Positions 53,425-60,847 of a DNA stretch of 64,000 nucleotides are shown here, one piece after another. The translations under genes were made by a program, and so were the position numbers. This DNA comes from Lentisphaeria bacterium (GTDB lineage: Bacteria; Verrucomicrobiota; Lentisphaeria; JABSQK01; JAWLHB01): the NCBI GenBank assembly GCA_041690595.1, contig JAWLHB010000010.1, positions 124,001 to 188,000 on the forward strand. The letters run 5' to 3'. The notes beneath the pieces were generated by a model, which ran no database searches, was not told where the DNA came from, and saw only the letters and a program-made list of their open reading frames with translations. Within the stretch, counting starts at the first letter, position 1; each line of letters starts with the position of its first letter.

Positions 53425-54537
53425 TTACATGGAGTCAGCAGCAAGCCGTGCGGGATAGGCTTGAACTTCTTCATACATGGCGACGATATTTTCTGGTGGC
53501 GTATCGGGCTGGAGGGTGTGCGAGGGAGCGAGGATGTAACCGGCAGGACCAAGAGTATCGATGCGGGAACGTACCTCGGCGCGAACCTCGTCCGGTGTGC
53601 CGGTAACGAGGGTATGCTGGATGTCGATAGCGCCATGGAAACAGAGATGACTGCCGAATTCCCGTTTGAGGCGAGCGGGATCCATGCCTACAGCGGCTGT
53701 CTGGATGGGGTTGAGGACATTGATGCCGGCGTCGATGAAGGAGGGGATGATGTCAAAAATGGCGCCGCAGCAATGGTGGTAGCCGAGGACCCCCGACTTG
53801 CGGGCATACGCGAGATGGCGCGCCAGGCTGGGCATGAAGTAGCGGTCGATCATGCCCTTGCCCAGAAGAAGTCCGAGTTGAGTGCCGTAGTCGTCGCCAC
53901 AGCCGATGAGGTCGATGGCGCCGGGATAGCGATCGAGGACGACCTCGAGGCAGCCCATGGTGTAGGCCTCGACCTTGGCGACGACCGCCTCGACGATGGC
54001 GGGTTCGAGGGCCAGGTCGGTCATCAGCTTCTCCATGCCGAGCAGAGCCCATGGCACACCGAAGGGGGCCATGAAGCTCATGTCGAGCACCACCTTGTCC
54101 TCCTTCCAGGCGGCCAGATTGAAGTCCGGTGGCACCTCGGGAAAGACGACCTCGTCAACGGTCGGCCAATCGTAGCGCTCGACATCGGCGACGGACTGGA
54201 CATGCGCGAGAGGGGGCGCGACCATTTCGTAGTAGCGGGCGCCGGTAGAGGTTTCGGCGAGCACGCGACGGCAGCCCCAGATGTCGATCTGCTCGCCGGG
54301 AGCGGCGGCGGCACGAAGGCGTGCCTGACGTTCCGGCATGGATGGAGCGCCACCAATGGCGGACCAGAAGGAACTGAAGAAGTTGCAGTTGAAGTGAGCG
54401 CCCACAGTCGTATCGTCATCGAGCCCAAGATGGCGACGGAAGATCGCATCGGCCTCGGCGCGTGCCTCGTAGGTGTAGGGGATACGTCCGCTGAATTGGC
54501 GGTGGATAGCGGTCATCAAAGCATGGCGATTGTTCAT
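53425..54537 (-). CDS. URO-D/MtaA-CmuA-fold protein (copy 3, HxC plus C-terminal His)
   Basis: LLGMEKLMTDL, GDDYGTQ, YHHCCG, GINVLNPIQ, LKREFG..LCFHGAID.Q, GYILAPSH....DTPPENI. Confidence 0.85.
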   Translation of the reverse strand: MNNRHALMTAIHRQFSGRIPYTYEARAEADAIFRRHLGLDDDTTVGAHFNCNFFSSFWSAIGGAPSMPERQARLRAAAAPGEQIDIWGCRRVLAETSTGARYYEMVAPPLAHVQSVADVERYDWPTVDEVVFPEVPPDFNLAAWKEDKVVLDMSFMAPFGVPWALLGMEKLMTDLALEPAIVEAVVAKVEAYTMGCLEVVLDRYPGAIDLIGCGDDYGTQLGLLLGKGMIDRYFMPSLARHLAYARKSGVLGYHHCCGAIFDIIPSFIDAGINVLNPIQTAAVGMDPARLKREFGSHLCFHGAIDIQHTLVTGTPDEVRAEVRSRIDTLGPAGYILAPSHTLQPDTPPENIVAMYEEVQAYPARLAADSM

Positions 54538-54557
54538 GGAAGATCCTTTCCAGGCGT

Positions 54558-55871
54558 TCAGGTGGAAGAAACGCGGTCGATGACAAGGCGGCGGACCGAA
54601 CTCCAGGCCAAGGCCGGCCGAGGTTCGGGCTTTCTGGTGGACAAGGTCAGGTCGCGCAGTTGCAGCCCGTCAACGTCCCGGGCAAAGATGGCGTAGGCCG
54701 GCAGCTCGCCGAAGATCTCCATCGAGGGATATCCTTCGCGCTTCATGGGGACCTCGCGGTGGATCAGCTCCGGCGCTCCCCCACCCTCGAAATCCAGCCG
54801 GCAATCGGCGATGGTGACATCCCGCACCGGTGCATCGGGCAGACCGGCAATGTAGCAGCTTTGGGGTGCGGCCTCGCGCGCATTGACCTGCCGGATGGTG
54901 ATGTTGCGGGCAAAGCTCACGGGCTGGCGAACGTCGGTACCACCGACGGGACGGGAACGGTGGCCTAGCCGAATGAAGAAGGGCACACGTACCTGGTCCA
55001 TGGTGACGTTCTGCACGGTGATGTTCTCCAGGCAACCGCCATCGACCGCGCCCAGCGCAATGCCGCAGGCTCCCCGCCAATCCGCCCCTTCGGTTCCATG
55101 GTGAGATTCCCGTCGCTCCGAGGGGGTCATCACCATCCCGTCGACGATAATATTGCGGAAGCCGCCATTGGATTCGGTGCCGGTCTTGAAGTGGTTGCAG
55201 TGGGTCCGGGTGAGGCAATCGGCGATCAGGACGTTTTCCGTGACGTTGAGATTGCCGGATTTCAGGCAGATGGCGTCATCACTGGAATCGACGCGACAAC
55301 CACGGATCTGTACGTCACGGCAGGAGTCGATATCGATGCCGTCGCCGTTGCTGCCGCCGTGGTTCCAGACATCCAGGTCGGTGAGACGAACCTTGGTGCA
55401 GCAGAGATAATGCTGCATCCAGAAAGGAGAGCAGCGCAAGTGCAGCCCTTCGACGATGACATCGTGGCAGCGGGCAAACCAGATATTGCGCGGCAAGCCC
55501 GCCCGGATGCCAGTGCCGCCAAACCGCGGCCCCTGGCCATCGATGGTGCCCTCGCCGATAACGCGAATGCTCGTGCAGTCGAGAGCGAAAAGCAAGGCTC
55601 TGAGCCCCTCCTTACTTTCGAAGAAGGGCTCTGGGACGGGATTGTAGTGGATGTAGTGATCGAGGTTGGTGCTGCCGAGAAGAAGTGCCCCATTTTCGAG
55701 ATGGAGCGTAACGTGACTGCGCAGCACGAGCCCGCCCGTCAAGTAGCGCCCAGGAGGGAAGAGGATCGTCCCTCCGCCGGCTTCTCCACAGCGATCGATG
55801 AGCGCCTGCAAGGGAGCGGTATTGAGGGTCTGCCCATCCGGCACCACCCCATGATCAAGAACTGTCAACAT
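54558..55871 (-). CDS. GH28-like (polygalacturonase-fold) glycoside hydrolase, no signal peptide
   Basis: GGGTILFPPGRYLTG...L.S.VTL, G.GTIDGQG, SPFW, NGDGIDID, DDAICLKSG, KTGTES. Confidence 0.85.
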   Translation of the reverse strand: MLTVLDHGVVPDGQTLNTAPLQALIDRCGEAGGGTILFPPGRYLTGGLVLRSHVTLHLENGALLLGSTNLDHYIHYNPVPEPFFESKEGLRALLFALDCTSIRVIGEGTIDGQGPRFGGTGIRAGLPRNIWFARCHDVIVEGLHLRCSPFWMQHYLCCTKVRLTDLDVWNHGGSNGDGIDIDSCRDVQIRGCRVDSSDDAICLKSGNLNVTENVLIADCLTRTHCNHFKTGTESNGGFRNIIVDGMVMTPSERRESHHGTEGADWRGACGIALGAVDGGCLENITVQNVTMDQVRVPFFIRLGHRSRPVGGTDVRQPVSFARNITIRQVNAREAAPQSCYIAGLPDAPVRDVTIADCRLDFEGGGAPELIHREVPMKREGYPSMEIFGELPAYAIFARDVDGLQLRDLTLSTRKPEPRPALAWSSVRRLVIDRVSST

Positions 55872-59293: not shown

Positions 59294-59299
59294 GGTTGA

Positions 59300-60847
59300 T
59301 CAGGCAATGCCGAAGAGACGCATCGCGTCGCGCTCGATCGATTTCCGGTGCTCTTCACCAATGAAGCTTTCGGTATAGAATTTGACTATCGGCTCCGTTC
59401 CGGAGGGGCGCACCAGAGCCCAGCCGCAGTCGTCCTCCAGGTAAAGCTTGATACCGTCGGAGTCGCGCAGATCGACGACCTTCCGATCGCCGATGCGATT
59501 GCCTGTGGCGGCGAGCCGCTCGGTGACTTGGTCCTTGGTAAGCTGGCGCAGACTGGCGCGAAGCTGGTCGTTGGCAGGTTGGTCGTTGCGGGCATAGGCG
59601 GGGCGACCATATTGCTCGGCCAGTTCGTCGTAGAGCTGCTTGAGGTCCTTACCGGTGACGGCCATGATCTCGGCAAAGAGCATGACAGCGGCAATGCCAT
59701 CCTTTTCAGTCGTCCACCGGAAGAAGGACATGCCGGCGCTCTCTTCACCCGCCACCAGATAGCGATCGTTGAGCAGACCATGGACGAAGTGCTTGAAGCC
59801 GACATCCATTTCGTCAACCTGACGGCCGTTGGCGCGGGCGATGCGGTCGAGCAGGTGCGTGGTGCCGATGGTGCGCCCGATGGCGAGATCGCCCGGCCAC
59901 TCGGGGCGATGCTTCATGAGGTAATCGGCGACAACACAAAGGGCATGATTGGGGTTGAGGAGGCCGGCCTTGCCGGTGGCGACGCCAAAGCGGTCGGCAT
60001 CGGGATCCGTGGCGCCGGCCATCTCGAAGCGATCCGCGGAAACGAGATCGAGCAGTGGCCTGAGTGGATAGGTGGAAGATGGATCCATGCGGACCTTGCC
60101 GTCGTAATCGACGGGAACGAAGCCGAACGAGGGATCGAGGGTGCAATCGACGATCTCCATGCTGTCCAGCCCCCAGGCGATGAGGGCTTCGAAGTAGCGG
60201 AGCGCCGCGCCTCCCAGCGGATGGATGCGAATCTTGAGCTTCCGGTCGCGAATGGCCGCGAGGTCGACATTCCGAGCGAGGCGCTCGATGTAGGGCCCGA
60301 TGAGGTCCTTGTCTTCGATGAGGCGTCCCTGGGCGCGGGCCTGATCGAGAGATTGGCAATGGATGGGACGGTTGCCGGCGAGGCATTCATTAGCCATGTT
60401 CTGGATGGCGCCGGTGGTCTCCGGGCCAGCGGGGCCGCCCTGTTCGGGATTGTACTTGATGCCCATATCCTCGGGCGGATTATGAGAGGCCGTGCCGATG
60501 ATGCCGTCGGAGATCTCCGGATCATGGAGGATGGCCAGGGAGAAGACTGGAGTGGGAACAGCTTGATCGGGAAGAACGACGGTGGCGCCGTTGGCGGTCA
60601 GAACCTGAGCACAGAGGCGGGCGGTTTCGAGGGAGAGCAGCCGGGTGTCGCCGCCGATGAGGATGGCCTTGTCATAGCCACGCTCCCGGCGCAGGTCGGC
60701 GACAGCCTGGGCGACGGCGAGGACATGACGCTGGCTGAACTCGCGCCCGAGCTTGCCACGATGGCCGGAGGTGCCAAATTTGACGGGGGCCAGATTCTCG
60801 TCGGTGTCGAGGAAAGCCTGCTTGAGAGCCGCTGCGTCGAATGCCAT
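59300..60847 (-). CDS. pgm: Phosphoglucomutase (alpha-D-phosphohexomutase)
   Basis: FGTSGHRG, PTPV, TASHNPP, KYN, RMDPSS, DPDADR, GFK, GEESAG, RPSGTEP. Confidence 0.92.
   Translation of the reverse strand: MAFDAAALKQAFLDTDENLAPVKFGTSGHRGKLGREFSQRHVLAVAQAVADLRRERGYDKAILIGGDTRLLSLETARLCAQVLTANGATVVLPDQAVPTPVFSLAILHDPEISDGIIGTASHNPPEDMGIKYNPEQGGPAGPETTGAIQNMANECLAGNRPIHCQSLDQARAQGRLIEDKDLIGPYIERLARNVDLAAIRDRKLKIRIHPLGGAALRYFEALIAWGLDSMEIVDCTLDPSFGFVPVDYDGKVRMDPSSTYPLRPLLDLVSADRFEMAGATDPDADRFGVATGKAGLLNPNHALCVVADYLMKHRPEWPGDLAIGRTIGTTHLLDRIARANGRQVDEMDVGFKHFVHGLLNDRYLVAGEESAGMSFFRWTTEKDGIAAVMLFAEIMAVTGKDLKQLYDELAEQYGRPAYARNDQPANDQLRASLRQLTKDQVTERLAATGNRIGDRKVVDLRDSDGIKLYLEDDCGWALVRPSGTEPIVKFYTESFIGEEHRKSIERDAMRLFGIA

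Follow-up and report, generated by a model that had tools for sequence, protein, structure and literature searches.

A possible corrinoid-dependent sugar O-demethylase of the uroporphyrinogen decarboxylase fold, with a recurrent GH2 partner, in a Lentisphaeria genome

In a 64,000-nucleotide stretch of a Lentisphaeria bacterium genome (assembly GCA_041690595.1, contig JAWLHB010000010.1, positions 124,001 to 188,000; hereafter the window), five minus-strand genes at 53425-60847 encode a phosphoglucomutase (pgm, P0005), two proteins of the uroporphyrinogen decarboxylase (URO-D) fold (P0004 and P0001) and, between these two, a pair of glycosidase-like proteins (P0003 and P0002). P0001 is likely a corrinoid-dependent methyltransferase (MT1) of the UroD superfamily, and, if so, a methylated sugar is its favored substrate, though not strongly. 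That P0001 serves the whole chain, moving a methyl group from an O-methylated sugar released by a GH2 glycoside hydrolase to a shared corrinoid protein and then to tetrahydrofolate (THF), falls a little short of an even chance. More tentatively still, we propose that the P0001 clade consists of B12-dependent, O2-independent sugar O-demethylases with a dedicated cytoplasmic GH2, and that the approximately 90 paralogues in this and similar genomes are a glycan-demethylase library served by one shared carrier, some of them paired in operons with PhyH proteins that are perhaps an oxidative counterpart. We infer rather than observe the metal, the reaction direction and the substrate of P0001.

The association with sugars comes from gene context. 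Orthologues of P0001 were found in 14 of the 330 genomes of the class, and in 10 of these 14 loci, from five families and six genera, the orthologue follows a GH2 gene whose 770-aa product has no signal peptide, either directly (six loci) or with an SGNH-like gene between the two (four loci), usually with a GntR-type regulator ahead. The middle gene of the operon was named SGNH/GDSL in a protein-atlas search, which serves as a lead only. In the other four loci, P0001 stands before a GH116 gene and faces an SGNH-like gene, faces PfkB and KDPG aldolase genes, has non-sugar neighbors, or lies on a 1.8-kb contig; an orthologue outside the class converges with GH38 and PfkB genes. All but one of the 14 genomes with a P0001 orthologue also have the GH2 (13/14), versus 10 of the 316 others, the two counts being assumed from identical genome handles to come from the same sample. 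It is nearest to beta-galactosidases and beta-glucuronidases, and its NE and SEY/SEW acidic motifs are kept in 24/24 copies. A link of the URO-D proteins to glycosidases had been suggested in the preliminary description of this locus, made from the letters and their translations; for P0001 such a link holds, with a conserved partner that here lies on contig C6 and is neither of the neighbors P0002 and P0003, while none was found for P0004. At C6:113317-119899, a glycosyltransferase-like gene on the opposite strand separates the GH2 from the SGNH-like gene; a Gfo dehydrogenase gene lies upstream, and a short, divergent MetE-like gene is also there.

Both P0001 and P0004 belong to the URO-D family PF01208 (76.8 and 43.7 bits; Pfam gathering cut-off 23.9 bits). 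An identity as HemE was ruled out by the absence of the RQAGR motif, which the preliminary description had named and which is indeed missing from all five proteins, by the lack of a TIGR01464 (HemE) match for P0001 or P0004, and by the presence of a true hemE elsewhere in the genome. Likewise, an identity as MtaA or Mlp was ruled out by scores far under the cut-offs of the models TIGR01463 and NF040654 (32.5 and 15.6 bits against 235; 48 and 17 against 400), by the lack of a His-Cys-Cys zinc site, and by the lack of an adjacent corrinoid protein or Ram gene. A PDB sequence search with P0001 alone gave no match, and the best PDB match of its profile is MtaA (4ay7), with the HxC motif in register and a His replacing the third Cys. 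Conservation in 85 homologues points to H255, C257 and H340 as putative metal ligands of P0001, that is, a His-Cys-His site; P0004 has His-x-His and no third Cys. Conserved acids, D215/D216 in P0001 and E214/E275 in P0004, could contribute to the metal site. According to PMC10418091, His-Cys-Cys marks S-methyltransferases, and O-methyltransferases swap one or both Cys for carboxylates or non-coordinating residues. The earlier view of the URO-D proteins as metal enzymes acting on modified sugars is thus partly upheld: they are not HemE, a metal site is kept, and a sugar or demethylation link is likely for P0001, whereas release of the substrates by the adjacent hydrolases is not borne out.

The genome also encodes the other parts that an MT1 would need. 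No corrinoid protein or activator was noticed in the window, by its gene list and a Pfam scan of a 23-protein subset, in agreement with the preliminary description, which had argued from this absence for corrinoid-independent chemistry; that argument does not survive a genome-wide search, in which a corrinoid protein, RACo and a pterin-binding methyltransferase were found on other contigs. The description had itself named partners encoded elsewhere as speaking against its proposal. A four-part O-demethylase kit (corrinoid protein, RACE activator, MT2 and an MT1 candidate) is thus present, and the operon at C15:38961-42363 combines the corrinoid protein with RACo and a URO-D paralogue. A 1230-aa MetH-like frame lies on contig C26. 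As a third B12-binding match, a MerR-type regulator with B12-binding domains was seen near carotenoid-type genes (C9:158625-159572); we take it to be CarH/LitR-like.

Across genomes, the activator follows the number of URO-D proteins. Among 41 genomes, which include kin and are not independent, RACo was found in 10/10 with at least three PF01208 matches, in 5/7 with two, and in 1/24 with at most one. Of 15 genomes with a P0001 orthologue, 14 have RACo and 12 a close corrinoid protein (E<=1e-50), and 13 of 30 corrinoid-protein genes have a URO-D gene no more than 1.5 kb away. Predicted in three runs, a complex of P0001 with the corrinoid protein reached an ipSAE of 0.84, whereas the highest value among three controls was 0.00; contacts agreed to at least 98%, and partner pLDDT was at least 83. 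Of 157 complexes of known structure 116 attain the ipSAE mark used, as do 2 of 215 mismatches, rates that are only rough for the alignments used here (85 rows for P0001 and 30 for the corrinoid protein). In the predicted interface, residues 168-177 and 219-229 of P0001 face the cap helix (55-67) of the corrinoid protein and the surface is conserved on both sides, with contacts at P60/E61 of the cap, which are invariant, and at E169/M172/D174 of P0001, which nearly are. This docking motif is absent from HemE and kept in 41 of 87 aligned proteins; P0004 keeps its G and E only.

Taken as a mechanism, the cytoplasmic GH2 beta-glycosidase, often with the SGNH esterase, would cleave an imported oligosaccharide and release an O-methylated sugar. 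P0001 would bind the methyl ether at its putative His-Cys-His metal site, and Co(I) of the corrinoid protein would receive the methyl group; the two RACo proteins may keep this cobalt reduced. The pterin-binding methyltransferase would then transfer the methyl group to THF, for oxidation via the formate-THF ligase (FTHFS) encoded beside it or for use by MetH, and the unmasked sugar would enter catabolism. P0004 and most other paralogues probably share the carrier and act on other substrates. Acetogenesis by the Wood-Ljungdahl route was considered as a methyl sink and rejected, as acetyl-CoA synthase (CdhC, PF03598) has no match in the genome; the methyl groups would therefore go to THF oxidation or methionine instead. 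One prismane-family match was found, and matches to the MTHFR family are three weak domains inside larger frames.

Several observations weigh against this scheme. At E<=1e-70, a P0001 orthologue is missing from 10 of the 23 GH2-bearing genomes, the two genes lie on different contigs in this genome, and the GH2 could release a methoxylated aglycone instead of a methylated sugar. The His at the third Cys position of P0001 is not the carboxylate or non-coordinating swap described for O-demethylases (PMC10418091). The complex prediction supports binding of P0001 to the corrinoid protein, but family likeness to solved methyltransferase-corrinoid complexes may contribute to the score, and the docking pattern is lost in more than half of the aligned paralogues and only partly kept by P0004. 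Eighty-eight MT1s for a single carrier would be an extreme ratio. Finally, strict glycosidase or lyase Pfam families account for 8 of the 163 immediate neighbors of the 88 paralogues versus 6 of 127 genes from 20 random 10-kb regions (p=1).

The paralogue count itself was obtained in two ways: the genome has 64 PF01208 matches, and an iterated hidden Markov model (HMM) run on our own gene calls yields 89 proteins, one of them the true HemE, leaving 88 non-HemE paralogues. They are old (median best identity 32%), and in ten cases two of them are at most three genes apart. At the metal positions, 87 proteins carry HCH (16), DDH (12), GCE (6), HCC (3) and other residues. The expansion is patchy among relatives, with at least 38 paralogues in 3 of 41 genomes and 0-2 in 31 of 41; within a single genus one genome (G005) has at least 38, versus two each in three others (G001, G011, G013). 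Beyond these relatives, two Armatimonadota, with 33 and 27 matches at E<=1e-15, and one planctomycete, with 34, show such an expansion too.

A general rule that the paralogues sit beside glycosidases was tried and is unsupported by the strict Pfam test above, for which proteins were cut to 600 aa and which orphan hydrolases such as P0003 escape. A broader carbohydrate set, defined after seeing the data, gave 31/163 versus 12/127 (p=0.03). Sulfatases adjoin a paralogue in 6 of 76 cases (p=0.025); Gfo/Idh/MocA and LacI/GntR families showed no significant enrichment beside paralogues. The strongest signal is PhyH: of 44 such genes, nine adjoin a URO-D paralogue (odds ratio 8.8, p=4e-6). All nine have the orientation of their paralogue, eight stand upstream of it, and the gaps measure 13-92 nt; beside three other expanded families, no such enrichment of PhyH was seen. 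Such pairs, which fall in several motif classes, possibly combine oxidative and corrinoid-dependent demethylases for shared substrates. Another PhyH gene abuts the pterin-binding/FTHFS pair on C9.

These neighbor data bear on the rival that survives best, in which P0001 and P0004 are corrinoid MT1s acting on non-sugars: methylamines, further small methyl donors, or methoxylated aromatic aglycones that the GH2 releases from glycosides. Known UroD-superfamily demethylases take O-, S- and halogen-linked methyl groups, and OdmB and VdmB have phenolic substrates (PMC10418091); strict glycosidase enrichment is lacking genome-wide, P0004 orthologues have no fixed partner, and PhyH gives the strongest neighbor signal. 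The P0001 operons, however, hold a sugar-type regulator, the GH2 and the esterase, other P0001 orthologues lie near GH116, GH38 and PfkB, or PfkB and KDPG aldolase, and aromatic-catabolism families are absent among the neighbors of P0001 orthologues. On this evidence a non-sugar substrate is unlikely, though the idea deserves serious weight.

It is improbable, at least for P0001, that the proteins are corrinoid-independent metalloenzymes (hydrolases, decarboxylases or lyases) acting on sugar-derived intermediates, with the RACo association reflecting an anaerobic lifestyle and the predicted interface an inherited likeness. One carrier for 88 paralogues and the widely varying metal-position residues would fit that idea, against which stand the RACo profile, the complex score with its conserved-surface contacts and the URO-D genes near 13 of 30 corrinoid-protein genes. 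It may well hold for some clades, and is more likely for P0004 and the divergent ones. P0004 is 18% identical to the P0001 clade in a profile alignment, its invariant residues are E214, H251, H253 and E275, and its model resembles HemE about as much as MtaA (TM about 0.6); still, it is probably also an MT1-type enzyme. Among 96 candidate neighbors of P0004 orthologues were nine URO-D, five Gfo/Idh/MocA, four sulfatase and two GHL6 proteins and one GH2-type domain, and no conserved glycosidase partner was found at the surveyed orthologue loci. Some P0004 orthologues are part of URO-D gene runs, up to five genes long, and a 'YGCCE'-type paralogue together with a beta-helix protein accompanies several of them.

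The preliminary description had taken the five genes for a candidate pathway complete in itself and located in the cytoplasm: P0003 and P0002 would release uronates or methylated sugars, which the URO-D proteins would then process. Its structural observations hold: the genes are intact and co-oriented, with gaps of 6, 110, 3 and 20 nt, Pfam and the fold of P0003 bear out two URO-D-fold proteins around two glycosidase-like ones, and a crude hydropathy window finds no hydrophobic N-terminal stretch, such as a signal peptide would give, in any of the five. The short gaps and single strand favor a pathway, as does the resemblance of P0003 to alpha-uronidases, some of which, to judge from structure titles, release 4-O-methyl-glucuronate, a plausible demethylase substrate; a recent co-option in this lineage is conceivable. 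Two URO-D genes around two others are not a rare arrangement here, however, since the genome has 89 URO-D-type genes and ten close pairs, and the adjacency exceeds chance only weakly.

The neighborhood survey that the description had called for covered homologues of P0001, P0002, P0003 and P0004, those of P0001 within the phylum and mainly within the class, and many surveyed loci are short contigs on which distant linkage could be missed. The five-gene cluster was repeated at none of 15 P0001 loci; URO-D, P0003 or pgm genes lay within 1.5 kb at none of 26 P0002 loci; a P0002 or pgm homologue occurred at none of 79 P0003 loci (1.5-18 kb), with any URO-D gene at four; and P0002, P0003 or pgm homologues occurred at none of 80 metagenome and 13 class loci of P0004, although 20 of the 80 held further URO-D genes. 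Named close homologues are mostly from Lentisphaeria, Kiritimatiellia, Planctomycetota and Armatimonadota. As a conserved unit the pathway is thereby rejected and largely refuted, and as an explanation of these genes it is very improbable. The locus is instead, as we hold with high confidence, a mosaic in which a housekeeping pgm precedes four genes of accessory catabolism that usually keep other partners.

P0003, by itself, is a candidate new glycoside hydrolase family that is probably unassigned to known ones. It has no Pfam, NCBIfam or PDB sequence match, and its AlphaFold2 model (pLDDT 92.5) is closest by Foldseek to the alpha-uronidases GH138, GH67 and GH115, with which it has a three-domain architecture in common (Z 16.1-17.7, root-mean-square deviation 4.3-5.6 A, 509-560 aligned residues) but only 10-14% identity and no sequence membership; GH84 follows at Z about 15. 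Protein-atlas names (GH115/GH67N-like) are a lead only. Its invariant acids include E274, E277, D312, E366, D382 and D420, and it has at least 1660 homologues among 8000 scored. One is in Paenibacillus agaridevorans, whose single PF01208 match at E<=1e-15 is HemE-like, so P0003 does not need URO-D partners, a further point against the five-gene pathway. GHL6 appeared seven times among 62 hand-picked neighbors of P0003 homologues (of 105 candidates), besides regulators, transporters and deacetylases. The family is often just downstream of a GHL6 protein. In some Paenibacillus and Cohnella its genes stand in tandem, and this genome has five paralogues that are distant from P0003. P0002 belongs to GH28 (PF00295, 63.2 bits; cut-off 22.9), and its NGD (175-177, NxD) and DD (198-199) motifs, aligned with 5olp, are presumably the GH28 catalytic residues. 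The nearest curated model is a BT4146-type rhamnogalacturonidase (242 bits, cut-off 500), and the protein is predicted to be cytoplasmic by a hydropathy window without a hydrophobic N-terminus.

Least probable of all is the reverse direction, an MtaA/Mlp-type reaction with the corrinoid protein as methyl donor and a thiol, a selenol or another compound as acceptor. The nearest solved relative (MtaA), the weak MtaA-model matches and the MetE-like gene near the GH2 on C6 (named by reading its sequence) would suit it, but the missing His-Cys-Cys site, the low scores of 48 and 17 bits given above and the absence of an mlp-type cluster oppose it.

The proposed sugar demethylation resembles several known systems. 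The O-demethylases of anaerobes (OdmB/VdmB, MtvB, MtoB; PMC10418091, PMC8630106), likened here by description, have, as P0001 does, a metal site other than His-Cys-Cys within a four-part kit, and PMC10418091 states a UroD-superfamily MT1 for OdmB/VdmB; a scheme of O-demethylation is given in PMC8630106. Their substrates, however, are aryl methyl ethers and their parts are usually clustered, whereas here the MT1 is one of 88 and is associated with a GH2 and an esterase. With MtaA/MtbA/MtsA and Mlp (4AY7; TIGR01463, NF040654), P0001 has in common the fold, the HxC position and the best PDB profile match, but its third ligand is His, P0004 has HxH without the third Cys, and the cluster of type 1 mlp loci is missing. 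HemE shares the barrel fold with the URO-D paralogues. Dispersed MT1s with a separate shared corrinoid module, as here, are known from Eubacterium limosum, where several MT1s (MtpB, MtcB, MtyB) use one corrinoid protein, activator and MT2 (MtqC, RamQ and MtqA; PMC8604678), and from Ca. Formimonas warabiya, with 82 MttB genes in a single genome (PMC9768040); those are MttB-superfamily N-demethylases of acetogen-type organisms, whereas no acetyl-CoA synthase match was found here.

Methylated sugars resist degradation (PMC6292453). Under aerobic conditions, a P450 demethylates 6-O-methyl-D-galactose (PMC6292453, PMC12316285), and a GH2 releases methylated galactose in PMC12316285, which calls the anaerobic route of sugar demethylation undiscovered. 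P0001 would solve the same unmasking problem, although the P450 is an O2-dependent heme enzyme of unrelated fold that yields formaldehyde. Searches in the main texts of the open-licence literature turned up no account of a URO-D expansion in these bacteria or of a corrinoid-dependent sugar demethylase. The chemistry and the kit are thus already known, and the substrate class and scale would be new. If true, the proposal would supply an anaerobic route for unmasking methylated glycans, with P0001, the GH2 and esterase of C6, the corrinoid protein and RACo of C15 and the pterin-binding methyltransferase of C9 as the enzyme set, and dozens of genes per genome labelled 'uroporphyrinogen decarboxylase' would be re-read. 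The five-gene cluster as such is of little interest.

Table 1. Features of the window (plain coordinates) and of other contigs of the same genome (coordinates preceded by a contig label).
Feature	Location	Strand	Remarks
P0005, pgm (phosphoglucomutase)	59300-60847	-	515 aa; all four PGM Pfam domains
P0004, URO-D-fold	58181-59293	-	370 aa; Pfam URO-D 2.4e-11, 43.7 bits
P0003, glycoside-hydrolase-like	55875-58070	-	731 aa; without Pfam or NCBIfam family
P0002, GH28-like beta-helix hydrolase	54558-55871	-	437 aa; Pfam GH28
P0001, URO-D-fold	53425-54537	-	370 aa; Pfam URO-D 2e-21, 76.8 bits
P0006, third URO-D-fold paralogue of the window	48980-50023	-	outside the cluster; Pfam scan
Fourth URO-D-fold paralogue, more divergent	41363-42484	+	no Pfam match; genome-built HMM
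Sigma-70-like promoter match upstream of pgm	61030-61058	-	TTGTCA-17-TACAAT, 10/12; consensus match only
GH2 orthologue	C6:115271-117610		near SGNH-like gene and Gfo dehydrogenase
Stand-alone corrinoid protein	C15:38961-39596		only one in the genome
RACo	C15:39755-41263		
Second RACo	C5:159553-161418		
Pterin-binding methyltransferase	C9:213730-214740		directly before formate-THF ligase (FTHFS)
True hemE	C50:44719-45714		before hemH- and hemG-like genes (neighbors named by reading sequences)
PhyH-URO-D pair (example)	C7:194693-196613		
PhyH-URO-D pair (example)	C5:172887-174884		
PhyH-URO-D pair (example)	C21:27109-28951		
PhyH-URO-D pair (example)	C28:6668-8691		

At the locus itself, pgm is probably a housekeeping gene; it has no second close copy in the genome, and it scores 442 bits against TIGR01132, under the cut-off of 778. 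Five sigma-70-like promoter matches such as the one upstream of it were found, where shuffled sequence would give 2.0. The share of G at third positions, which averages 0.35 over the genome (sd 0.09), is 0.33 in P0003 but only 0.20-0.26 in the other four genes (pgm, P0004, P0002 and P0001), a mild sign of a mixed history of 53425-60847. Elsewhere in the window, the gene at 44167-48588, just downstream of P0006, has a product of 1473 aa. Its N-terminus is signal-like, its central Pfam-less region resembles a glycosidase barrel by eye, and it also has a GATase1-like domain and HEAT repeats. Upstream of P0006, the sequence at 50529-50557 suggests the end of a tRNA gene beside an AraC-like fragment. 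A GH20-like gene and two FAD-oxidoreductase (PF12831) genes lie at 27621-29540 and 35844-41207, one of them adjoining the fourth URO-D paralogue.

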